Shown here one piece after another: positions 738-51,360 of a DNA stretch of 64,000 bases. Location of the stretch: the NCBI RefSeq assembly GCF_053078305.1, contig NZ_CP166879.1. One strand, written 5' to 3'. A model generated the notes under the pieces. It saw nothing but the letters and a program-made list of their open reading frames with translations, made no database searches and had not been told where the DNA came from. Positions within the stretch are counted from its first letter, which is position 1, and each line of letters starts with the position of its first letter. A program made the translations under genes and the position numbers.

Positions 738-1610
738 TTAACCGTTATTACGTCCGCCAGAACGACGACCGCCGCTCACCTGACTGTGACGTTTCACCGC
801 ACGACGAATCTGATTCGCCTTCATGCGACGACGGTCTTTTTCTACAGCGACTTTAGAGCTGGTTTCTGGCGGTAGCTCCACCAGTTCGCGCAGATAGTTA
901 GTCTGGGCGAGGTCCAGCTCCGTCCAGCCACCGCGTGGCAGACCTTTTGGCAGTGGGATATCACCGTAACGAACACGGATCAGGCGGCTCACCTGCACAC
1001 CAACCGCTTCCCACAGACGACGAACTTCACGGTTACGGCCTTCGGTCAGAGTCACGTTGTACCACTGGTTGATCCCTTCGCCGCCGCTGAACTTGATGGT
1101 TTTAAAAGCTGCCGGACCATCTTCCAACTGCACGCCACGACTCAAATCACGCAGTTTCGCGTCGTCAACCTGACCAAATACACGCACGGCATATTCACGT
1201 TCAACTTCACGGCTTGGGTGCATTAAACGGTTTGCCAGTTCACCATCGGTGGTGAACAGCAGCAGACCACAGGTATTAACGTCCAAGCGACCCACGGCAA
1301 TCCAGCGTGCGCCACGCAGTTTTGGCAGACGGTCAAACACCGTTGGACGTCCTTCCGGATCGTTACGGGTACACAACTCACCTTCCGGTTTGTAATAGGC
1401 CAGAACGCGACAAATTTGTTCAGCGGACTCACGTACCGAAATCAGGTGACCATCGATACGGATTTTCAATCCAGGGGTAACTTCAACGCGATCGCCGAGT
1501 TTAGCAATTTTGCCATCAACACTCACACGACCGGCTTCAATAATAGATTCGATTTCACGGCGAGAACCGTGGCCGGCACGCGCCAGCACTTTCTGTAGCT
1601 TTTCGCTCAT
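738..1610 (-). CDS. rluB: 23S rRNA pseudouridine synthase RluB
   Basis: 290 aa ORF, S4 domain plus pseudouridine synthase core and basic C-terminal tail, matches recalled RluB. Confidence 0.9.
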
Positions 1611-1822
1611 AGAGCTTCCTTTTGGTGTCGCCTTCCCAGGCGTCTGATATGCTTTTGTGCAACAGTGAGTCAGAACTTACATCTGACTCACTGATAGTAA
1701 AGTCTGTTTGAACTCTTCAGGCCTTAAGTAAACGACTCGACGTTTTAACTGGCCTGGCTTTGAGGCGCAACATACTACACTATCTTTATGGTTAAAGCTT
1801 GTTTCGATTATCATCAGCTTAA

Positions 1823-24703: not shown

Positions 24704-24949
24704 ATGAAAACCATCTTTATCAAACCCGCGCCGGGACGCCTGATTCGTGATCCCGACACAATGCGCCCGCTGGCACAGGAGGGGGAGGAAAAGCCCTTCA
24801 CGCCGTTCTGGTGTCGGCGTCTTGATGACGGCGATGTCATTCAGGCTGAAAAAGCCGCTGAAGAGGCTCCGGCTGTATCTGCGGATGCAACGACTGCGAC
24901 AGAAAAACCGGTCGCCCAACCGGCATCCGATAAGGAGAAACCGCAATGA
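24704..24949 (+). CDS. hypothetical small protein
   Basis: 81 aa ORF upstream of sheath. Confidence 0.4.
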   Translation: MKTIFIKPAPGRLIRDPDTMRPLAQEGEEKPFTPFWCRRLDDGDVIQAEKAAEEAPAVSADATTATEKPVAQPASDKEKPQ

Positions 24950-26448
24950 TTAATTTTGACGGGATCGGTAATGACCGCCGTATACCGCTGATTGAGGTTG
25001 AGTTTAATAACTCCATGGCTGTCACCGGCACCCCGGCACAGCGTCAGTGTGTACTGCTGTTTGGTCAGGCGAGAATGAAAGAGAATGCCGTGGACGGTAC
25101 CGGTGTTCTGGATGTTCCGGTCAGGATCACCCGTGCGTCTCAGGCAACAGAACTCTGGGGGCGCGGCTCCATGATTGCCCTGATGGTGGCGGAATTTATC
25201 GCCATCAATCCTGATGCTGAACTGTATGCCATTGCTCAGGGGAATGGCACCGGACAGGCAACGGCTGCGGCCATGAATCTGACCGGAACGGTCACCCGTG
25301 ACGGGATTGTTTATGCCTGCGTGGGGGGGCGGCGTTATACACTCCCGGCACCAAAAGGTAAGAAAGGCAAAGAACTGACCGACGAGCTGGCCGCGCTGAT
25401 CAATGCCGATCCTGACGCGCCCTTCACGGCCTCCTCTGGTGCAGGAAGTGGTGATAATGGCGCAGGTCTGAAAGGGTCTCTGGGGATCACCGCCCGCTTT
25501 ACCGGTGAATGCTCCGTGCATGATGTGCGCCTGAACTATCACGACGGGGAAGCAACCCCGGAAGGAATACAGGTCGCTATAGCCTATCCGAAACAAAAAG
25601 CGGCTAACCCGGATATCACCCGAAGCGTGGCGGGTATGGGCGATCGCCAGTACAACTATGTCGTCATGCCCTATAAGGATGATGCAAACCTGAAAATCAT
25701 CAGTGATGAGCTTCTGAAACGCTGGGGACCGGCCAAAATGTCTGACGGCGTGCTGTGGCTGGCACATACCGGCACGTTTGGTGAGGTGCAGGCATTCGGG
25801 GCAAAACGCAATGATTTTCTGGCGACCTGCACATCCATTCCCAAAGCCCCTGAACCGGATTACCTCTGGGCCGCGGCGGTCTGCGCCACCTGTGCACCCT
25901 CTCTGGGAGCAGATCCTGCGCGTCCGCTTCAGACGCTGGCGCTTCCGTCACGCATGGCCCCGGCTCCGGCCGATCGTCTGACGCGTGAAGAGCGTAACAG
26001 TCTGCTGTGGGGAGGGATTGCCTCGGTCAGTGTGGCTGCCGGTGATGTGGTTCAGATCGAACGTCAGGTGACCATGTATCGCCAGAACGTGTACGGCGAA
26101 AGTGATCCCAGCTATCTGGATGTGGAAACCATCTACACCCTCTCCTGGCTGCGTTATTCCCTGCGTACTTTTATCACACAACGTTTTCCGCGCCATAAAC
26201 TGGCTGATGACGGGACGCCCGTTCGTGCCGGTCAGAATATCGTGACGCCGGAGATCATGAAGCTTCAGTTAATTTCGCTGGGTGAAGAGTGGGTGGAACT
26301 CGGGCTGGTCGAAAATCTGGACACCTTTAAAAAGAATCTGCTTGTGGAGCGTAATGCGTCAGATCGAAACCGTCTTGACGTGTTATGCACGCCGGATCTG
26401 GTTAACCAGTTCCGCTTCCTGGCAGCACAGATCCGTTTCATTTTGTGA
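24946..26448 (+). CDS. tail sheath protein
   Basis: 500 aa ORF followed by a ~120 aa tube candidate. Confidence 0.8.
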   Translation: MINFDGIGNDRRIPLIEVEFNNSMAVTGTPAQRQCVLLFGQARMKENAVDGTGVLDVPVRITRASQATELWGRGSMIALMVAEFIAINPDAELYAIAQGNGTGQATAAAMNLTGTVTRDGIVYACVGGRRYTLPAPKGKKGKELTDELAALINADPDAPFTASSGAGSGDNGAGLKGSLGITARFTGECSVHDVRLNYHDGEATPEGIQVAIAYPKQKAANPDITRSVAGMGDRQYNYVVMPYKDDANLKIISDELLKRWGPAKMSDGVLWLAHTGTFGEVQAFGAKRNDFLATCTSIPKAPEPDYLWAAAVCATCAPSLGADPARPLQTLALPSRMAPAPADRLTREERNSLLWGGIASVSVAAGDVVQIERQVTMYRQNVYGESDPSYLDVETIYTLSWLRYSLRTFITQRFPRHKLADDGTPVRAGQNIVTPEIMKLQLISLGEEWVELGLVENLDTFKKNLLVERNASDRNRLDVLCTPDLVNQFRFLAAQIRFIL

Positions 26449-26456
26449 GGTAACGC

Positions 26457-26822
26457 ATGAGCGGAAAACAGTATCAGGGCACGGCCACTATCCGTGTGAA
26501 CGGTCAGGAATACGAGACGCTTGAGGGGGCTACATTTTCTCCGTCAGGTTTTGAACGTGAAGTGGTGAAAGGCGCGAAAGTCTATGGTTACCGCCAGAAA
26601 CCACGTGAAGCGACGCTGGACTGCAAATTTCCGGCAGGCGGAGAAGGCTCACCAGCCGCTGATGAAATCAACAACTGGACTGCGGTCACCATCGAGTTTG
26701 TGGCGGATACCGGCGAAGTCCACATGATGACGAAGGCCTGGAGCAGTGAACCGGCCTCGCTTGACGGTGGCGGGGAGATCTCCGTGAAGTTCGCCAGCGC
26801 CTCCAGTACCCGTGTTCAGTGA
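26457..26822 (+). CDS. tail tube protein
   Basis: 121 aa ORF after the sheath. Confidence 0.7.
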   Translation: MSGKQYQGTATIRVNGQEYETLEGATFSPSGFEREVVKGAKVYGYRQKPREATLDCKFPAGGEGSPAADEINNWTAVTIEFVADTGEVHMMTKAWSSEPASLDGGGEISVKFASASSTRVQ

Positions 26823-27313
26823 TCAGGAAAAATAAAATGACCACACGTAAGAAAAAAACGGCAGTTTCCGATGCCGCCGTGATGGAGGCAATCCGGGAAG
26901 CACTTGAGGGGGCTGATCCACGCACTGCCGGGCTGACAGAGCAACTGGCAAAGGGATATGTGGATCTGCTTGATGGTCTGCCGTTTGGTGAGACCCGTGA
27001 ATATCGTGTCACGTTCCGGGAACTGACTGCGAAAGACAGTATTGACGCAGAAGCAGAAGCCGAGCGCGTGGTGGAGACAAACAATGGCCCGATGCTGATA
27101 GCGTCTCCGTCGTTACGCGGTGTTGCACTGCTGCGCCGTCAGATTGCCGCAGTGGGAGACATTGAGGGTCCGTTGTCACCCCGTCAGATTGGGCGGTTAA
27201 GCGAGCGCGATCTCTCCCGCCTGATGGCAGCGGTCAGCCTGCTGGATACCGCGCTTGCCGGAAAGCTGGCTGCTGACCGGGGGCGATCAGGCGCAGTGTC
27301 GGGATCAGATTGA
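26819..27313 (+). CDS. tail assembly chaperone-like protein
   Basis: 164 aa ORF between tube and tape measure. Confidence 0.5.
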   Translation: MIRKNKMTTRKKKTAVSDAAVMEAIREALEGADPRTAGLTEQLAKGYVDLLDGLPFGETREYRVTFRELTAKDSIDAEAEAERVVETNNGPMLIASPSLRGVALLRRQIAAVGDIEGPLSPRQIGRLSERDLSRLMAAVSLLDTALAGKLAADRGRSGAVSGSD

Positions 27314-27437
27314 AGAAGCGGCAATTATCCTGGGGATGGTGACAAAAAGCGGCCCGGAATGGGCGCTTAACCTCCCCCTGTCGCAACTTTACCGGCACTG
27401 CCGACAGACAGAAAAAATCATCAGAACGAAGCAGTAA
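27255..27437 (+). CDS. overlapping ORF downstream of chaperone (possible frameshift extension)
   Basis: 60 aa ORF in the +1 frame overlapping the chaperone 3' end and ending just before the tape measure start. Confidence 0.3.
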   Translation: MPESWLLTGGDQAQCRDQIEEAAIILGMVTKSGPEWALNLPLSQLYRHCRQTEKIIRTKQ

Positions 27438-27439
27438 GT

Positions 27440-29515
27440 ATGGCCCGAAATCTCAGAGCATCTCTGATAGTTGATTTGCTCGGCAATATCTCAGCCAAAT
27501 CCCGCCAGTGGTCTCAGGAGCTGGGGGCATTCTCACGCTCCGGCCAGGCGGGGCTGGGTGGTCTGGGAAATGCTGCCCGCCGTGCCGGGCAGGAAACAGA
27601 TGTACTCGGAAGCAGGATGCAGCGCACGCTGGCCGGGGTGCGGGGCAGTATCCGCCATGTCACTTCTGATTTTGACCGTCTTCAGGGCAGTATTACCGGC
27701 ACCATCGGGCGGATCAGCAATCTTTACGGAATGCTGGCCGGTGGTGCTGCTGTATATGGCTTTAACCGGGGATTTATTCGCCCGGCAGCGGAGATGGAAA
27801 CCTATATGATTCGCCTGAACTCCCTTTACAAAGGGGATCGGGCGAAAACGGATGATGTCCGCAGGTGGGCAATACAGAATGCGAAGGAAACCACCTGGGG
27901 GCTGGCTGGCGTCATGCAGGAATATACGTCCAGTCTGGGCTTTGGTATGAGTGACAGGGAGGCCCGAAATTTTGTCACCATGCTTCAGGATCAGGGTGCC
28001 GTGGGCGGCTGGTCACTGTCCGATGCACAGGGGGCATCCCTGCAACTGAAACAGATGTATGCAAGAGGCAGTATTCAGGCGGCGGATGCAAATATTCTTG
28101 CCACCTACGGCATTAATGCCTACCGCGTGCTGGCTGATCGTCTGGGTGTGGACCAGAAAGTGGTCAGAAAACTTGGTGAAAAAGGGCTGCTTGGGCCGGA
28201 CAGTATTCGCCTGTTATTTCAGACGCTGGCGGAACAGGCCAGGGGAGCACAAAAGGACGCAATGAATTCCTGGAGTGGCCTGACGGCCATGATGGGTGAC
28301 GTCTGGGACCAGTTTGCCCGGGATGTGATGGACAGTGGGCCATTTGAAAAACTGAAGGGTAATCTCAGGGGATTTCTTTCATGGGTTGACAGTGCCAAAT
28401 CTGATGGCAGTTACCATTCCCTGGCGGAAAGCACGGCATCAGCCATGAACCAGGGCTTTGAGTATGCCCGTGATGCAGTGACAGGGTTTTATCAGGCGAT
28501 CAGAAAGGTACGCGACACGCTTCAGGCTCTGCGGGATGCGGGCTATGGTGATGCGCTGGATCGCATTGGTCAGGGGGCACAGACTGCCGCGAAATACCTG
28601 CTGTACATGTATCTCGCCACCCGTGCCCTGAAAATGGCGCGGGCTGTCGGAACGGGGATTATACGTCCGGGTGCTGCATTGCTGGGATACGGATTATCAG
28701 CGGCGGCCTTCCTGACTTCACCTTTCCGGCGCTCTCCTCCGGCCGGAACACCACCAGGCACATCTCAGGGACGAGGGCAACGTTTTATGAACTTTCTTAC
28801 CGGGGTAAATCCGGCAGCCGTTCAGCCAGTGCTTGTAACAAACTGGCCCGCAGGAGGACTGTCCGGCACCGGCGCGACCGATACATCCTCAGGCGGACGT
28901 CAGGGACGGGGCCGCAGGAAACGCGGACCGGGGCGCGGAAGACCGGTCACGCCTCCCCTGCCACCGTCCCCTGTACCACCGTCGCCCTCTTCTGGTGGGT
29001 CAGGGTTCTGGGGGCGCATGATGGGGCGCGCCGGTGGGTTGCTTTCGTCTGCCGGTAACCGCATGGGACTGGGGCGTTTCTCCGGCTTTTTCCGCAGTGC
29101 CGGTGGACTGGCTGGACGGCTGGGTGGCGGTGCCCTGTGGGCTGGCGCGATGGCAGCCCCGGTTCTGCTGGATGGCAGCGCCAGTATCACAGACAAGGGA
29201 GAAGCGGTCGGCTCTCTTGCAGGCAGTATTGCCGGTGGTGCGCTGGGGGCGGCAGCCGGACCTGTGGGGATTGCCATTGGTTCTACGGTGGGCAGCTATC
29301 TCGGTAACTATCTGGGGGGGTGGCTGACTGAAGCCTGGCAGAAATTACGGGGCAGTGATAATGAAAGCAGTGGACAGGCGGTACAAAAAGCCTCTGCCCG
29401 TGTGGAGCTGGTTGCCCCGGAAGGGTGGCAGGCTCGCAGTATTGATATTGATGACACGTCCGGTCACGGACTGGATGTGAATGTCTGGAACGGAGGGAAT
29501 TATGGCCTCTGGTGA
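27440..29515 (+). CDS. tail tape measure protein
   Basis: 691 aa with Gly/Ala/Pro-rich low-complexity region, typical size and position. Confidence 0.8.
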   Translation: MARNLRASLIVDLLGNISAKSRQWSQELGAFSRSGQAGLGGLGNAARRAGQETDVLGSRMQRTLAGVRGSIRHVTSDFDRLQGSITGTIGRISNLYGMLAGGAAVYGFNRGFIRPAAEMETYMIRLNSLYKGDRAKTDDVRRWAIQNAKETTWGLAGVMQEYTSSLGFGMSDREARNFVTMLQDQGAVGGWSLSDAQGASLQLKQMYARGSIQAADANILATYGINAYRVLADRLGVDQKVVRKLGEKGLLGPDSIRLLFQTLAEQARGAQKDAMNSWSGLTAMMGDVWDQFARDVMDSGPFEKLKGNLRGFLSWVDSAKSDGSYHSLAESTASAMNQGFEYARDAVTGFYQAIRKVRDTLQALRDAGYGDALDRIGQGAQTAAKYLLYMYLATRALKMARAVGTGIIRPGAALLGYGLSAAAFLTSPFRRSPPAGTPPGTSQGRGQRFMNFLTGVNPAAVQPVLVTNWPAGGLSGTGATDTSSGGRQGRGRRKRGPGRGRPVTPPLPPSPVPPSPSSGGSGFWGRMMGRAGGLLSSAGNRMGLGRFSGFFRSAGGLAGRLGGGALWAGAMAAPVLLDGSASITDKGEAVGSLAGSIAGGALGAAAGPVGIAIGSTVGSYLGNYLGGWLTEAWQKLRGSDNESSGQAVQKASARVELVAPEGWQARSIDIDDTSGHGLDVNVWNGGNYGLW

Positions 29516-30851
29516 CGGTCGTGGTGCGTTCCGTGGTGTGCCGTTCCTCGTCTGGCGTGAGCAGCGCGAACGTGGCGGGCGAAACATTGTCCGTCGGGAA
29601 TATCCGTTACGGGAAACCGGTGGAGCAGACGATCTGGGACCTAAACTGGCTGAATTTACGTTCAGTGTACTTGTGATGGGGGATGATGTTCAGACGCAGC
29701 GAAATCGTCTGCGTGATGCCCTTCGTGCTCCCGGTGCCGGGGAGCTGCTTCACCCGGATTACGGCACGTTAAATGTGCTGATAAACAGCTTTGAAAGTCG
29801 TTATAACGCCGCTGAACAGGGCGTGGTTGAGTTCACCATTAATGTCACGCCGGTAAGTGATGATACCGCACCTGCTGTCACACAGGACACGGCCGCCATT
29901 CTGGAGCAGAAGAGTACCACCGCGCTCGGGCAGGTTTTTGAAACCCTGGAAGCGGGCTGGACGGTGATTTCTGACGGAATGCACGATGTCCAGGCAATGA
30001 CCGAAACCATCAGCGATAAGGTGTCCGCCCTGGAAAATGCCGTTTCCGGCATGGGGATTGTGCAGGATATCAGTGCCTTTACTGCCACGTTCACGGCGCT
30101 GAAAGGGAATGCCACGGCATTACTGACAGCACCTTCCCGCATGGCCTCATCTTTTGCGGGGCTTTTCAGTGCCCTGATCACCCTGCCATCGCTGCCGTCA
30201 CTGTCTTCAGGAGGCCTGAATACCCGGCCCGGTGGCAGTATCGGCCGGACGACATCCGCCGTCTATCAGGGAATGCCGCAACTGTACAGGACATTATCTT
30301 CCCTGCGTTACGTGCTGGATGAGCAGGATAATCCGCAGACTCTCATCGGTCTGACACCGGCAGCACAAAAGAATATTCGTCTGATACGGGCGGTAATGCA
30401 GAGTGCTGCCGTGGTGGCCCAGGCACAGACCGTGGGAAAACTGCTGGATCAGGTTCTCAGTCAGGAAACCCTGCCGGATAGTGACGCAGCCCACCGTACC
30501 TGGCCTGTCTGGCTGGAAAGTTCAGTCGATCTTCAGCGCATTAACCGTGACTTAAGCGAAGCGCTCGAACGGCAGGTGATGACACTGTCCGGGCAGGGGT
30601 ATACCGCCACGGCGCTGACGCTTCGTGATGCCAGACTGGCACTGACAGAGGATCTGAATACACGGGGAGTTCAGCTACCCGGTGCAACAGTAGTGACTGT
30701 ACGTACCACCGAGCCTGCACTGGTGACCCTGTACCGTGCCACCGGGAACAGTACCGGCTGGCAACGTTTTGTGCGCCGTAACGGTATTGTTGATCCGCTG
30801 TTCATTCCCGGAGGCCATTCAGTGGAGGTGATTAGTGAGCAGCAGGGTTGA
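29481..30851 (+). CDS. DNA circularisation protein (Mu N-like)
   Basis: 456 aa ORF following the tape measure. Confidence 0.7.
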   Translation: MSGTEGIMASGDGRGAFRGVPFLVWREQRERGGRNIVRREYPLRETGGADDLGPKLAEFTFSVLVMGDDVQTQRNRLRDALRAPGAGELLHPDYGTLNVLINSFESRYNAAEQGVVEFTINVTPVSDDTAPAVTQDTAAILEQKSTTALGQVFETLEAGWTVISDGMHDVQAMTETISDKVSALENAVSGMGIVQDISAFTATFTALKGNATALLTAPSRMASSFAGLFSALITLPSLPSLSSGGLNTRPGGSIGRTTSAVYQGMPQLYRTLSSLRYVLDEQDNPQTLIGLTPAAQKNIRLIRAVMQSAAVVAQAQTVGKLLDQVLSQETLPDSDAAHRTWPVWLESSVDLQRINRDLSEALERQVMTLSGQGYTATALTLRDARLALTEDLNTRGVQLPGATVVTVRTTEPALVTLYRATGNSTGWQRFVRRNGIVDPLFIPGGHSVEVISEQQG

Positions 30852-44693: not shown

Positions 44694-44738
44694 ATGAAAG
44701 CAATTTTCGTACTGAAAGGTTGGTGGCGCACTTCCTGA
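44694..44738 (+). CDS. trpL: trp leader peptide
   Basis: [14 protein letters not shown] with tandem Trp codons. Confidence 0.95.
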
Positions 44739-44780
44739 AACGGGCAGTGTATTCACCATGCGTAAAGCAATCAGATACCC

Positions 44781-44808
44781 AGCCCGCCTAATGAGCGGGC
44801 TTTTTTTT
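44781..44808 (+). terminator. trp attenuator terminator
   Basis: AGCCCGCCTAATGAGCGGGCT hairpin followed by T8. Confidence 0.9.
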
Positions 44809-44829: not shown

Positions 44830-46392
44830 ATGCAAACACAAAAACCGACTCTCGAACTGCTAACCTGCGAAGGCGCTTATCGCGACAATCCCACCGCGCT
44901 TTTTCACCAATTGTGTGGGGATCGTCCGGCAACGCTGCTGCTGGAATCCGCAGATATCGACAGCAAAGATGATTTAAAAAGCCTGCTGCTGGTAGACAGT
45001 GCGCTGCGCATTACAGCTTTAGGTGACACTGTCACAATCCAGTCCCTTTCCGGCAACGGCGAAGCCCTGCTGACACTACTGGATAACGCCCTGCCTGCGG
45101 GTGTGGAAAATGAACAATTACCAAACTGCCGTGTGCTGCGCTTCCCCCCTGTTAGTCCACTGCTGGATGAAGACGCTCGCTTATGCTCCCTTTCGGTTTT
45201 TGACGCTTTCCGCTTATTGCAGAATCTGTTGAATGTACCGAAGGAAGAACGAGAAGCCATGTTTTTCGGCGGCCTGTTCTCTTATGACCTTGTGGCGGGG
45301 TTTGAAGATTTACCGCAACTGTCAGCGGAAAATAACTGCCCTGATTTCTGTTTTTATCTCGCTGAAACTCTGATGGTGATTGACCATCAGAAAAAAAGCA
45401 CCCGCATTCAGGCCAGCCTGTTTGCTCCGAATGAAGAAGAAAAACAACGTCTCACTGCTCGCCTGAACGATCTTCGCCAGCAACTGACCGAAGCCGCGCC
45501 GCCGCTGCCGGTGGTTTCCGTGCCGCATATGCGTTGTGAATGTAATCAAAGTGATGACGAGTTCGGTGGCGTAGTGCGTTTGTTGCAAAAAGCGATTCGC
45601 GCCGGAGAAATTTTCCAGGTCGTGCCATCTCGCCGTTTCTCGCTGCCCTGCCCGTCACCGCTGGCGGCCTATTACGTGCTGAAAAAGAGTAATCCCAGCC
45701 CGTACATGTTTTTTATGCAGGATAATGATTTCACCCTGTTTGGCGCGTCGCCGGAAAGTTCGCTCAAGTATGACGCCACCAGCCGCCAGATTGAGATCTA
45801 CCCGATTGCCGGAACACGTCCACGCGGTCGTCGTGCCGATGGTTCACTGGACAGAGACCTCGACAGCCGCATCGAACTGGAAATGCGTACCGATCATAAA
45901 GAGCTTTCTGAACATCTGATGCTGGTGGATCTCGCCCGTAATGATCTGGCACGCATTTGCACCCCCGGCAGCCGCTACGTCGCCGATCTTACCAAAGTTG
46001 ACCGTTACTCTTACGTGATGCACCTGGTCTCCCGCGTGGTCGGTGAGCTGCGCCACGATCTCGACGCCCTACACGCTTACCGCGCCTGTATGAATATGGG
46101 TACGTTAAGCGGTGCGCCGAAAGCACGCGCTATGCAGTTAATTGCCGAGGCTGAAGGTCGTCGCCGCGGCAGCTACGGCGGCGCGGTAGGTTATTTCACC
46201 GCGCATGGCGATCTCGACACCTGCATTGTGATCCGCTCGGCGCTGGTGGAAAACGGTATCGCCACCGTGCAAGCCGGTGCTGGCGTAGTCCTTGATTCTG
46301 TTCCGCAGTCGGAAGCCGACGAAACCCGTAATAAAGCCCGCGCTGTACTGCGCGCTATTGCCACCGCGCATCATGCACAGGAGACTTTCTGA
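44830..46392 (+). CDS. trpE: anthranilate synthase component I
   Basis: 520 aa, matches recalled TrpE. Confidence 0.95.
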
Positions 46393-47987
46393 TGGCTGAC
46401 ATTCTGCTGCTCGATAATATCGACTCTTTTACGTACAACCTGGCAGATCAGTTGCGCAGCAATGGGCATAACGTGGTGATTTACCGCAACCATATTCCGG
46501 CGCAAACCTTAATTGAACGCCTGGCGACGATGAGCAATCCGGTGCTGATGCTTTCTCCGGGGCCAGGTGTGCCGAGTGAAGCCGGTTGTATGCCAGAACT
46601 CCTCACCCGCTTGCGCGGTAAGCTGCCGATTATTGGCATTTGCCTCGGTCATCAGGCGATTGTCGAAGCCTACGGGGGGTATGTCGGTCAGGCGGGCGAA
46701 ATTCTTCACGGTAAAGCCTCCAGCATTGAACATGACGGTCAGGCGATGTTTGCCGGATTAACAAACCCATTGCCGGTGGCGCGTTATCACTCGCTGGTTG
46801 GCAGTAATATTCCGGCCGGTTTAACCATCAACGCCCATTTTAATGGCATGGTGATGGCGGTGCGTCACGATGCAGATCGCGTTTGCGGATTCCAGTTCCA
46901 CCCGGAATCCATTCTCACCACCCAGGGCGCTCGCCTGCTGGAACAAACGCTGGCCTGGGCGCAGCAGAAACTAGAGCCAACCAACACGCTGCAACCGATT
47001 CTGGAAAAACTGTATCAGGCGCAGACCCTTAGCCAGCAGGAAAGTCATCAGCTATTTTCAGCGGTGGTACGTGGCGAACTGAAACCGGAACAACTGGCGG
47101 CGGCGCTGGTGAGCATGAAAATTCGCGGCGAGCACCCGAACGAGATCGCCGGAGCAGCAACCGCGCTACTGGAAAACGCAGCGCCGTTCCCGCGCCCGGA
47201 TTATCTGTTTGCTGATATCGTCGGTACTGGCGGTGACGGCAGCAACAGTATCAATATTTCTACCGCCAGTGCGTTTGTCGCCGCGGCCTGTGGGCTGAAA
47301 GTGGCGAAACACGGCAACCGTAGCGTCTCCAGTAAATCTGGTTCGTCCGATCTGCTGGCGGCGTTCGGTATTAATCTTGATATGAACGCCGATAAATCGC
47401 GCCAGGCGCTGGATGAGTTAGGCGTATGTTTCCTCTTTGCGCCGAAATATCACACCGGATTCCGCCACGCGATGCCGGTTCGCCAGCAACTGAAAACCCG
47501 CACCCTGTTCAATGTGCTGGGGCCATTGATTAACCCGGCGCATCCGCCGCTGGCGTTAATTGGTGTTTATAGTCCGGAACTGGTGCTGCCGATTGCCGAA
47601 ACCTTGCGCGTGCTGGGGTATCAACGCGCGGCGGTGGTGCACAGCGGCGGGATGGATGAAGTTTCATTACACGCGCCGACAATCGTTGCCGAGCTGCACG
47701 ATGGCGAAATTAAGAGCTATCAGCTGACCGCAGAAGACTTTGGCCTGACACCCTACCACCAGGAGCAACTGGCAGGCGGAACACCGGAAGAAAACCGTGA
47801 CATTTTAACACGCTTGTTACAAGGTAAAGGCGACGCCGCCCATGAAGCAGCCGTCGCGGCGAACGTCGCCATGTTAATGCGCTTGCATGGCCATGAAGAT
47901 CTGCAAGCCAATGCGCAAACCGTTCTTGAGGTACTGCGCAGTGGTTCCGCTTACGACAGAGTCACCGCACTGGCGGCTCGAGGGTAA
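46392..47987 (+). CDS. trpD: anthranilate synthase component II / anthranilate phosphoribosyltransferase
   Basis: 531 aa bifunctional protein, start overlaps the trpE stop. Confidence 0.95.
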
Positions 47988-49349
47988 ATGATGCAAACCG
48001 TTTTAGCGAAAATCGTCGCAGACAAGGCGATTTGGGTAGAAGCCCGCAAACAGCAGCAACCGCTGGCCAGTTTTCAGAATGAGGTTCAGCCGAGCACGCG
48101 ACATTTTTATGATGCGCTACAGGGTGCACGCACGGCGTTTATTCTGGAGTGCAAGAAAGCGTCGCCGTCAAAAGGCGTGATCCGTGATGATTTCGATCCG
48201 GCACGCATTGCAACCGTCTACAGAAATTACGCTTCGGCAATTTCGGTGCTGACTGACGAGAAATATTTCCAGGGAAGCTTTGATTTTCTCCCCATCGTCA
48301 GCCAAATCGCGCCACAGCCGATTTTGTGTAAAGACTTCATTATCGACCCTTACCAGATCTATCTGGCGCGCTATTACCAGGCTGATGCCTGTTTATTAAT
48401 GCTTTCAGTACTGGATGACGAACAATATCGCCAGCTTGCCGCCGTCGCCCACAGTCTGGAGATGGGTGTGCTGACCGAAGTCAGTAATGAAGAGGAACTG
48501 GAGCGCGCCATTGCATTAGGGGCAAAGGTCGTTGGCATCAACAACCGCGATCTGCGTGATTTGTCGATTGATCTCAACCGTACCCGCGAGCTTGCGCCGA
48601 AACTGGGGCACAACGTGACGGTAATCAGCGAATCCGGAATCAATACTTACGCTCAGGTGCGCGAGTTAAGCCACTTCGCTAACGGTTTTCTGATTGGTTC
48701 GGCGTTGATGGCCCATGACGATTTGCACGCCGCCGTGCGCCGGGTATTGCTGGGTGAGAATAAAGTATGTGGCCTGACGCGTGGGCAAGATGCTAAAGCA
48801 GCGTATGACGCGGGCGCGATTTACGGTGGGTTGATTTTTGTTGCGACATCACCGCGTTGCGTCAACGTTGAACAGGCGCAGGAAGTGATGGCTGCGGCAC
48901 CGTTGCAGTATGTTGGCGTGTTCCGCAATCACGATATTGCCGAGGTGGTGGACAAAGCTAAGGTGTTATCGCTGGCGGCAGTGCAACTGCATGGTAATGA
49001 AGATCAGCTGTATATCGATACGCTGCGTGAAGCTCTGCCAGCACACGTTGCCATCTGGAAAGCATTAAGCGTCGGTGAAACCCTGCCCGCCCGCGAGCTT
49101 CAGCACGTTGATAAATATGTTTTAGACAACGGCCAGGGTGGAAGCGGGCAACGTTTCGACTGGTCACTATTAAATGGTCAATCGCTTGGCAACGTTCTGC
49201 TGGCGGGGGGCTTAGGCGCAGATAACTGCGTGGAAGCGGCACAAACCGGCTGCGCCGGACTTGATTTTAATTCTGCTGTAGAGTCGCAACCGGGCATCAA
49301 AGACGCACGTCTTTTGGCCTCGGTTTTCCAGACGCTGCGCGCATATTAA
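47988..49349 (+). CDS. trpC: indole-3-glycerol phosphate synthase / phosphoribosylanthranilate isomerase
   Basis: 453 aa starting [21 protein letters not shown]…. Confidence 0.95.
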
Positions 49350-49360
49350 GGAAAGGAACA

Positions 49361-50554
49361 ATGACAACATTACTTAACCCCTATTTTGGTGAGTTTGGCG
49401 GCATGTACGTGCCACAAATCCTGATGCCTGCTCTGCGCCAGCTGGAAGAAGCTTTTGTCAGCGCGCAAAAAGATCCTGAATTTCAAGCCCAGTTCAACGA
49501 CCTACTGAAAAACTATGCCGGGCGTCCAACCGCACTGACCAAATGCCAGAACATTACGGCTGGGACGAAAACCACGCTGTATCTGAAGCGCGAAGATTTG
49601 CTGCACGGCGGCGCGCATAAAACTAACCAGGTGCTCGGTCAGGCTTTACTGGCGAAGCGGATGGGTAAAACCGAAATCATCGCCGAAACCGGGGCCGGTC
49701 AGCATGGCGTGGCGTCGGCCCTTGCCAGCGCCCTGCTCGGCCTGAAATGCCGTATTTATATGGGGGCCAAAGACGTTGAACGCCAGTCGCCTAACGTTTT
49801 TCGTATGCGTTTAATGGGTGCGGAAGTGATCCCGGTGCATAGCGGTTCCGCGACGCTGAAAGATGCCTGTAACGAGGCGCTGCGCGACTGGTCCGGCAGT
49901 TATGAAACCGCGCACTATATGCTGGGCACCGCAGCTGGCCCACATCCTTATCCGACCATTGTCCGTGAGTTTCAGCGGATGATTGGCGAAGAAACCAAAG
50001 CACAGATTCTGGAAAGAGAAGGTCGCCTGCCGGATGCCGTTATCGCCTGTGTTGGCGGCGGTTCGAATGCCATCGGCATGTTTGCAGATTTCATCAACGA
50101 AACCGACGTCGGCCTGATTGGTGTGGAGCCTGGCGGTCACGGTATCGAAACTGGCGAGCACGGCGCACCGCTAAAACATGGTCGCGTGGGCATTTATTTC
50201 GGTATGAAAGCGCCAATGATGCAAACCGAAGACGGGCAGATTGAAGAATCTTACTCCATCTCCGCCGGGCTGGATTTCCCGTCCGTCGGCCCGCAACACG
50301 CGTATCTTAACAGCACTGGACGCGCTGATTACGTGTCAATTACCGATGATGAAGCCCTTGAAGCCTTCAAAACGCTCTGCCTGCACGAAGGGATCATCCC
50401 GGCGCTGGAATCCTCCCACGCCCTGGCCCATGCGCTGAAAATGATGCGCGAAAACCCGGAAAAAGAGCAGCTACTGGTGGTTAACCTTTCCGGTCGCGGC
50501 GATAAAGACATCTTCACCGTTCACGATATTTTGAAAGCACGAGGGGAAATCTGA
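49361..50554 (+). CDS. trpB: tryptophan synthase beta chain
   Basis: 397 aa, matches recalled TrpB. Confidence 0.95.
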
Positions 50555-51360
50555 TGGAACGCTACGAATCTCTGTTTGCCCAGTTGAAGGAGCGCAAAGA
50601 AGGCGCATTCGTTCCTTTCGTCACGCTCGGGGATCCGGGCATTGAGCAGTCCTTGAAAATTATCGATACGCTAATTGAAGCCGGTGCTGACGCGCTGGAG
50701 TTAGGTATCCCCTTCTCCGACCCACTGGCGGATGGCCCGACCATTCAAAACGCCACTCTGCGCGCCTTTGCGGCAGGTGTGACTCCGGCACAATGTTTTG
50801 AAATGCTGGCACTGATTCGCCAGAAACACCCGACCATTCCCATTGGCCTGTTGATGTATGCCAATCTGGTGTTTAACAAAGGCATTGATGAGTTTTATGC
50901 CCAGTGCGAGAAAGTCGGCGTCGATTCGGTGCTGGTTGCCGATGTGCCAGTTGAAGAGTCCGCGCCCTTCCGCCAGGCCGCGTTGCGTCATAATGTCGCA
51001 CCTATCTTCATCTGCCCGCCAAATGCCGATGACGACCTGCTGCGCCAGATAGCCTCTTACGGTCGTGGTTACACCTATTTGCTGTCACGAGCGGGCGTGA
51101 CCGGCGCAGAAAACCGCGCCGCGTTACCACTCAATCATCTGGTTGCGAAGCTGAAAGAGTACAACGCTGCACCTCCATTGCAGGGATTTGGTATTTCCGC
51201 CCCGGATCAGGTAAAAGCAGCGATTGATGCAGGAGCTGCGGGCGCGATTTCTGGTTCGGCCATTGTTAAAATCATCGAGCAACATATTAATGAGCCAGAG
51301 AAAATGCTGGCGGCACTGAAAGCTTTTGTACAACCGATGAAAGCGGCGACGCGCAGTTAA
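50554..51360 (+). CDS. trpA: tryptophan synthase alpha chain
   Basis: 268 aa starting [28 protein letters not shown]…. Confidence 0.95.

Follow-up and report, generated by a model that had tools for sequence, protein, structure and literature searches.

The tail module of a Mu-like prophage of Escherichia coli very probably contains an unannotated orthologue of the phage Mu −2 programmed frameshift, by which this prophage would make its pair of tail assembly chaperones. The prophage resides in the 64,000-nucleotide stretch of DNA that was analysed as a whole (referred to as the window), and its lineage was found in 228 of 5426 complete E. coli genomes. The genes of the module follow the order sheath, tube, chaperone and tape measure (Table 1); the chaperone gene is located between the tube and tape measure genes of a contractile-tail module, and each of these two neighbours has a Pfam match. 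The original, tentative prediction that two chaperone isoforms are made here by programmed frameshifting is supported by a shift site and a C-terminal extension that are homologous to those of Mu and by the Mu pair itself, which is recorded as verified. At this locus RefSeq does not annotate the fusion and leaves a 126-nt gap without any annotation. The exact fusion sequence is absent from a collection of 15 billion proteins, and NCBIfam has no model for the fusion.

Table 1. Positions of the tail genes, the putative shift site and the predicted RNA elements in the window.
Feature	Position	Strand	Description
Sheath gene	24946..26448		Pfam matches PF04984 and PF17482
Tail tube gene	26457..26822	+	Directly upstream of the chaperone gene; PF10618 Tail_tube, E 3.3e-31; 'phage tail tube protein' according to RefSeq in a 99.4%-identical E. 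coli locus
Tail assembly chaperone, 0-frame product	26837..27313	+	158 aa plus TGA; PF23746 Gp41_Mu
Shift site CGG GGG CGA	27278..27286	+	0-frame Arg-Gly-Arg; identical to the Mu site
Extension in the −2 frame	27282..27437	+	51 codons plus TAA, GDQAQCRDQIEEAAIILGMVTKSGPEWALNLPLSQLYRHCRQTEKIIRTKQ; analogue of the lambda 'T' part
Spacer between CGA and helix	27287..27292	+	6 nt; same length in the local-hairpin clade
5' arm of helix	27293..27302	+	GCAGUGUCGG; candidate frameshift stimulator; found in MFE and centroid structures
Inner hairpin GCCC-GGAAU-GGGC	27352..27364	+	Inside the long-range helix; RNAalifold consensus, 99.2% of cells paired
3' arm of helix	27392..27401	+	CCGGCACUGC; would be translated only by shifted ribosomes
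Tape measure protein gene	27440..29515	+	PF20155 TMP_3, E 1.9e-18; 'tape measure protein' in RefSeq

The 0-frame protein matches PF23746 Gp41_Mu with an E-value of 9.2e-32 (109.8 bits against a cut-off of 27) and phrog_508, 'tail assembly chaperone', with an E-value of 7.6e-46, and it is 49% identical to Mu gp41 (tblastn, E 2e-26). The match to PF10109 (Phage_TAC_7, 'E, or 41 or 14') is weak, its 24.6 bits falling just below the 25-bit cut-off. Judging by these similarities, the 0-frame product is a homologue of Mu gp41 and an analogue of lambda gpG, and the 158-aa protein is listed in the 15-billion-protein collection as 'phage tail assembly protein'. As to its start, ATG 26837 is preceded by AGGAAA 7 nt upstream, and the same start is used by RefSeq in a 99.4%-identical E. 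coli chromosome. The GTG at 26819, from which the gene had originally been taken to begin, was rejected as it is not conserved, an 87%-identical relative (L002) lacking it, and RefSeq takes ATG 26837 instead. At the homologous place the Mu record AF083977 lists two products, Mu_41 and the joined CDS Mu_56, the latter with the remark 'verified -2 translational frameshift in PMID 15469818; tail assembly chaperone frameshift product'. Both are homologous to the pair considered here and share with it the same in-frame site.

The second part of the pair is encoded in a frame that overlaps the 3' end of the chaperone gene. We confirmed the predicted 60-aa ORF in the +1 frame, which overlaps the end of the chaperone gene and stops just before the tape measure gene. 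It begins with TTG, covers positions 27255..27437 on the + strand (27255-26819 = 436 = 3x145+1, that is, +1 relative to the chaperone frame), shares 59 nt (27255-27313) with the chaperone gene and ends with TAA 27435-37, 2 nt ahead of the tape measure ATG at 27440. In the window the +1 frame is open from 27225. The mere existence of this ORF is not significant, since alternative open frames of such length are common in the G+C-rich DNA of the window, where dozens of them were listed. It is conservation across relatives that, on comparative grounds, identifies the small ORF as real. The +1/−2 frame is kept in all of the approximately 90 distinct relatives and runs up to the start of the tape measure gene. 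Beyond the stop codon of the 0 frame it is open for 112-142 nt, except in L095 and L098, where this stretch measures 64 and 91 nt, respectively. The −1 frame extension in relatives is short and variable, and does not run to the tape measure start.

The conservation of this extension is of the kind expected for a protein. Its sequence matches the corresponding region of Mu, D108, SfMu and Yersinia Mu-like phages with 52% identity (tblastn, E 4e-12), the match starting at ORF residue 8, which coincides with the slip site. Across clades the extension peptides have 45-52 residues and share the pattern ...GW/PEWAL...LPLRRL.... In the non-overlapping part of a 31-sequence enterobacterial alignment, column entropies in the +1 frame are 0.63 at the first, 0.35 at the second and 1.13 at the third codon position, a pattern that is the signature of protein-coding selection in this frame; it excludes the explanation that the ORF is meaningless. 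The extension also matches phrog_12783 ('unknown function') with an E-value of 1.6e-37, and this PHROG is the frameshift extension called as a separate gene. In the 15-billion-protein collection the 60-aa ORF is found as 'hypothetical protein [Escherichia coli]'. It clusters there with 159-aa chaperones, which is a quirk of the clustering and does not represent a fusion.

The −2 programmed ribosomal frameshift of Mu gp41 / gp41-42 was reportedly described by Xu, Hendrix & Duda in 2004 as taking place on GG GGG CGA. The Mu site has been interpreted as tandem −2 slippage on GG GGG CGA, the −2 frame allowing the A-site tRNA-Arg (anticodon ICG) better re-pairing than the −1 frame does (Lin, Gilbert and Brierley, PMC3458567). 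The efficiency of the Mu shift has been given as ~2.2% (Firth et al., PMC3498833), and the Mu 10-mer alone leads to 14% shifting in a purified system (2025 preprint, bioRxiv 10.1101/2025.10.02.679949). Mu is counted among the few −2 cases, and in the lambda G/GT model a certain product ratio is needed for tail assembly (Atkins et al., PMC5009743). The overlap contains this very site, CGG GGG CGA, at 27278-27286. Read in the 0-frame, Mu has GAA CGG GGG CGA GUG and the window GAC CGG GGG CGA UCA, and the nine central nucleotides are identical in the window, Mu and L002, a Mu-like element borne by a Stx phage. A formal scan found no canonical X_XXY_YYZ heptamer in the overlap, in line with what had been noted at the outset; it is missing because the site is of the Mu −2 and not of the −1 type. 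The chaperone gene has a single in-frame X_XXY_YYZ, A_AAG_GGA at 26950, which lies a long way upstream and does not lead into an open −1 frame. A canonical −1 shift of the G/GT type was rejected: the overlap offers no heptamer, and the −1 frame, whose length is not conserved in relatives, ends 29 nt beyond the stop codon of the 0 frame.

To see how strictly the site is maintained, we compared relatives gathered from phage records and two IMG/VR scans, 65 plus 27 distinct sequences in all, the 65 coming from phage records and the first, alignment-based, IMG/VR scan. One locus (L075) was left out since its tblastn match starts in the wrong frame. The site occupies the invariant alignment columns R148, G149 and R150. 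In-frame (C/A)GG GGG CGA at invariant R-G-R columns near the C terminus is found in Klebsiella, Alteromonadaceae, Pasteurella, Shewanella and Vibrio phages, with protein identities of 33-50%. More generally, G GGG CGA is present in frame at the same R/x-G-R position in every one of the approximately 90 distinct relatives, down to ~33% identity. The site reads CGGGGGCGA in 54 of the 65 distinct sequences, AAGGGGCGA in five, AGGGGGCGA in four, and CAGGGGCGA and TCGGGGCGA in one each (1 of 65 in both cases). The last IMG/VR scan detected the site in 80/80 loci and added a clade with GAGGGGCGA. Throughout the 65 + 27 distinct sequences GGG and CGA are invariant, and the codon ahead of GGG always ends in G, whichever of the amino acids R, K, Q, S and E it specifies; most relatives retain the G5 run. 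In one relative (L067) G4 replaces G5 at the site, which fuses the two frames, and a second single G is lost in another G5 run; the fusion probably results from two homopolymer sequencing errors.

This degree of conservation would hardly be expected from codon usage. In the tail genes of the window only 4.1% of the Arg codons are CGA and 24% of the Gly codons are GGG, and the chance of R-G-R being spelt as at the site is ~0.002 from codon usage alone. The motif GGGGGCGA as such is expected ~2.4 times per window by chance, so that its presence alone is uninformative; informative are its frame, position and conservation. The homology of both parts to the Mu pair, the conservation of site and frame and the protein-type evolution of the extension are findings of sequence comparison.

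For this prophage we infer the occurrence of the shift, as well as its direction, its efficiency and the roles of its products, from homology. Most ribosomes would translate 26837..27313 up to the TGA and produce the 158-aa chaperone of the Gp41_Mu type. A minority of them would move two nucleotides backwards at the point where GGG 27281-83 occupies the P site and the A site is filled by the rare CGA 27284-86. The P-site tRNA-Gly is predicted to re-pair on GGG 27279-81 within the G5 run, and tRNA-Arg (anticodon ICG) on GGC 27282-84, the next codon to be read, through an I:C wobble. After the slip, the −2 frame would be read to TAA 27435-37. The predicted fusion, join(26837..27283, 27282..27437), has 200 aa, with the junction ...LAADRG-GDQAQCR... 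and the end ...TKQ, next to the 158 aa of the short product. The efficiency of the shift may be a few per cent. By analogy with lambda gpG/gpGT, both products would bind the tape measure protein, the short one coating it, and the additional C-terminal domain of the rare fusion would recruit the tube protein, in which case the frequency of shifting would set the product ratio. The original prediction spoke of a shift into the +1 frame. The frame is correct, while the event itself reads as a −2 shift, which leads to the same frame, and the TTG start of the 60-aa ORF is irrelevant to it. In the clades having only four G (AAG, CAG, TCG or GAG before GGG CGA) the exact path could differ, because there the −2 re-pairing of tRNA-Gly is imperfect.

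Several other routes to the second frame have to be weighed against this scheme. A +1 shift, in which one base is skipped (GGG_C), would give a 199-aa fusion, ...DRG-DQAQCR..., without the second Gly. Such a shift reaches the same frame as the −2 one, reporter assays cannot separate the two, and the imperfect −2 re-pairing in the four-G clades speaks in its favour. Nonetheless, we regard it as unlikely, since the Mu record and reviews state that the −2 shift has been verified, and all distinct relatives have a G directly ahead of GGG, although the codons that end in it stand for five different amino acids, with G5 mostly kept. These upstream G bases are important when a tRNA re-pairs backwards but would make no difference to a +1 shift, and tRNA-Arg(ICG) can pair with GGC after a −2 shift. 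Slippage by RNA polymerase rather than the ribosome, with two extra G or one fewer inserted in the G5 run, would likewise join the frames. There is a homopolymer run at the site, and L067 reads G4 with the frames fused. However, five G is a short run for productive transcriptional slippage, which makes this mechanism hard to favour, and it leaves the invariant CGA and the helix located 6 nt downstream unexplained. In addition, the second G loss in another G5 run of L067 points to sequencing error, and shifting on the Mu 10-mer occurs with purified translation components, though T7 transcription is also part of that system. We therefore find polymerase slippage very improbable.

Equally improbable is that the 60-aa ORF represents an independent small gene translated from TTG 27255 or from some other internal start. 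Databases do hold it as separate hypothetical proteins (gene 41.5 of D108 and the E. coli 'hypothetical protein'), and it has a PHROG of its own with unknown function. But TTG 27255 lacks a Shine-Dalgarno sequence and is missing from L049 and Mu; the +1 frame of Mu becomes open just 3 codons ahead of the site and has no start codon there, and gene 41.5 of D108 would need a CTG start. Neither a start codon nor a Shine-Dalgarno sequence of the small ORF is conserved among the relatives compared, and on this ground its independent initiation was rejected. Furthermore, conservation of the peptide starts exactly at the slip site, and an independent gene would leave the invariant rare codons GGG CGA without explanation. 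Ribosomal slippage by −2 remains the reading that we follow below.

A search for structure downstream of the site revealed a helix that begins 6 nt after CGA and is formed by 27293-27302 and 27392-27401. These segments pair in both MFE and centroid folds, in 114-nt as well as in 411-nt contexts (z −2.4 at 114 nt), the pairing probability of the 5' arm being 0.99. The same helix is predicted in Mu (GCGGUGCCGG/CCGGCACUGC, z −3.6). In 31 distinct Mu-clade sequences it is the RNAalifold consensus, with 99.7% of cells paired. Columns 22-118 of alignment A2 pair as UG, CG or UA; there is also one GC-to-AU double change and, in one sequence, one U-U mismatch. The covariation is thin, consisting of a single double-sided change, and 2/500 shuffles reach the observed score. 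Both arms are within coding sequence and specify conserved peptides, QCR and RHC. In the 3' arm, its four codons constitute the window of lowest third-position entropy in the unique extension (0.24 vs a mean of 1.13, P=6.5e-4 by resampling), and its His, Tyr, Phe and Cys are always encoded by C-ending codons, which indicates that synonymous change is suppressed in this arm. Inside the long-range helix, the evidence for the inner hairpin is weak because it overlaps the conserved peptide GPEW. Rfam has no family reaching the gathering score in the window, and in 27200-27480 gave only a chance snoRNA match (E 0.96).

Stable folding past the site is also predicted beyond the Mu clade. For 26 diverse representatives, the 120 nt after CGA have a mean z of −2.19 vs −0.27 for control windows of the same loci (dinucleotide shuffles), and the difference is significant by the paired Wilcoxon test (p=1.3e-6), the sequences being related and p-values accordingly optimistic. 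At positions +7..+16 after CGA, Mu-clade sequences have pairing probabilities of 0.90-1.00; 17 representatives of other clades average 0.85, compared with a mean of 0.59 in 312 control windows (p ~2e-7, optimistic given the kinship). In the clade that has GAG GGG CGA UAG, the predicted structure is a local 13-bp hairpin, the 5' edge of which is at exactly the same column as that of the Mu-clade helix. As two clades place the edge at the same column, it is the position of the 5' edge that is conserved, and the 3' partner differs. In the marine 'GELMRAR' clade the RNAalifold structure has the slip site itself paired, and the fold is not clean.

On thermodynamic and comparative grounds, the chances that the helix starting 6 nt after CGA stimulates or tunes the shift appear to be about even. 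A distance of 6 nt from the A-site codon is the geometry in which a 3' structure meets the mRNA entrance of the ribosome, and this is where the helix would sit during the shift. A stimulator would not be strictly required, because the slip 10-mer alone already shifts in vitro. That the helix edge acts as a stimulator or tuner across Mu-like phages in general, the edge being kept while the 3' partner moves, is a more tentative idea, possible yet on the doubtful side. We found no description of such a 3' element in the literature that was searched, which did not include the original 2004 Mu paper, where one may already be reported.

It is instructive to set the locus beside the known systems. 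The closest one is Mu gp41 / gp41-42, with the same gene order, Pfam family and R-G-R shift site, a homologous 51-residue extension that likewise ends at the tape measure start, and the same predicted long-range helix. Relative to Mu, the chaperone of the window is 49% identical and the extension 52%; the window protein has ~35 extra N-terminal residues, and its 0-frame tail after the site comprises 9 codons instead of 6 in Mu. The fusion in Mu is recorded as verified, whereas that in the window is predicted from sequence and is unannotated in RefSeq. The pairs of lambda (gpG/gpGT) and P2 (E/E+E') occupy the same place before the tape measure gene and follow the same logic, an abundant short product and a rare C-terminally extended one (model in PMC5009743). 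However, they use a −1 shift on a canonical heptamer, whereas the shift in the window would be −2, at a site that does not conform to X_XXY_YYZ. We detected no sequence similarity of the window proteins to lambda G/T. Sites of the E. coli dnaX type have a 3' stem-loop stimulator; in the window, a stable helix is predicted to begin 6 nt after the A-site codon. In a U6A −1/−2 system the outcome depends on the spacer, short spacers favouring −2 (PMC3458567). In contrast to dnaX and U6A, the 3' arm in the window clade is ~90 nt away and does not form a compact hairpin, and its role in shifting is a predicted one.

The Mu-type −2 frameshift itself is already known, and finding it here is expected for a specialist and not surprising; novelty may lie solely in the conserved helix located 6 nt downstream. 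As regards annotation, RefSeq lacks the fusion for this prophage lineage, and the second half of the fusion is known to databases as an orphan 'hypothetical protein' and under PHROG 12783. If pipelines took the site xxG GGG CGA as a rule, they could annotate the pair in Mu-like phages generally. Frameshifting by −2 is rare in nature, and the strict conservation of the site in widely divergent Mu-like phages together with the positionally conserved helix provides a comparative data set on the −2 shift and the determinants of its efficiency. If the helix is indeed a stimulator, it is tempting to speculate further about the clade of Mu and the E. coli prophage. Because the distal arm lies in the sequence read only after the shift, each shifted ribosome would transiently remove the stimulator, which may amount to a self-limiting control of the ratio between the short product and the fusion.

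The −2 frameshift extension of the Mu-type tail assembly chaperone has been entered in public resources in several guises. For phage D108 it was recorded as a small gene of its own, '41.5', which as an independent gene would require a CTG start; it also constitutes a PHROG of its own, phrog_12783, with 54 positions and its function listed as unknown. In E. coli the extension frame has been deposited as a separate 60-aa 'hypothetical protein' (for example, P0016 of the protein collection searched). All three are mis-annotated −2 extensions. In the 99.4%-identical E. coli locus L110, RefSeq PGAP annotates nothing in the 126 nt that separate the stop codon of the chaperone gene from the start of the tape measure gene, and one number is missing there from the series of locus tags. 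The prophage lineage shared by the window and L110 is present in 228 of the 5426 complete E. coli genomes.

In the protein collection, the 60-aa +1-frame ORF was placed in an 'at 90% identity' cluster together with 159-aa 0-frame chaperones (P0017-P0020). The ORF and these chaperones have no sequence in common; the co-clustering looks like an artefact of the collection and not like evidence of a fusion protein. The two frames are joined in one relative, L067, where the site reads CGGGGCGA, with G4 instead of G5. Another G5 run 70 nt downstream is also one G short, so that the frame is broken again. These losses probably represent homopolymer sequencing errors rather than a hard-wired fusion.

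Coordinates of the features discussed
Feature	Sequence	Coordinates	Strand	Remarks
Unannotated stretch	L110 (NZ_CP031906.1)	1515-1640		window 27314-27439
'41.5'	D108 (L023)	1571-1717
Site with G4	L067 (IMGVR_UViG_2758568005_000002)	1846-1950
Site followed by stop	L141	1140-1200
Upstream hairpin	window	27219-27292		predicted
ORF 3' of tape measure gene	window	29481..30851		different frame; 35-nt overlap (29481-29515)
Mu-like prophage	window	~2.7-37 kb
Trp_leader	window	44715-44808		Rfam match, 93 bits
Long trpEDCBA-like ORFs	window	44830..51360	+	3' of Trp_leader

The overlap of the next ORF with the 3' end of the tape measure gene is probably an ordinary one, with an alternative start. Beyond the prophage, the Trp_leader match and the ORFs that look like trpEDCBA place the Mu-like prophage within a few kb of the E. 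coli chromosomal trp operon.

As for RNA structure, an upstream hairpin (CCUGAUGG...GGCUGCUGACCGGGGGCGAUCAGG) in the 411-nt fold includes the slip site in its 3' arm, and this predicted hairpin would already have been opened by any translating ribosome. In one clade of relatives (L131-L166, including L141), a 0-frame stop immediately follows the site (GAG GGG CGA UAG), and 6 nt downstream of CGA a local hairpin begins whose 13 bp are all perfectly matched. There, the stop after the slow CGA codon might increase the pause.
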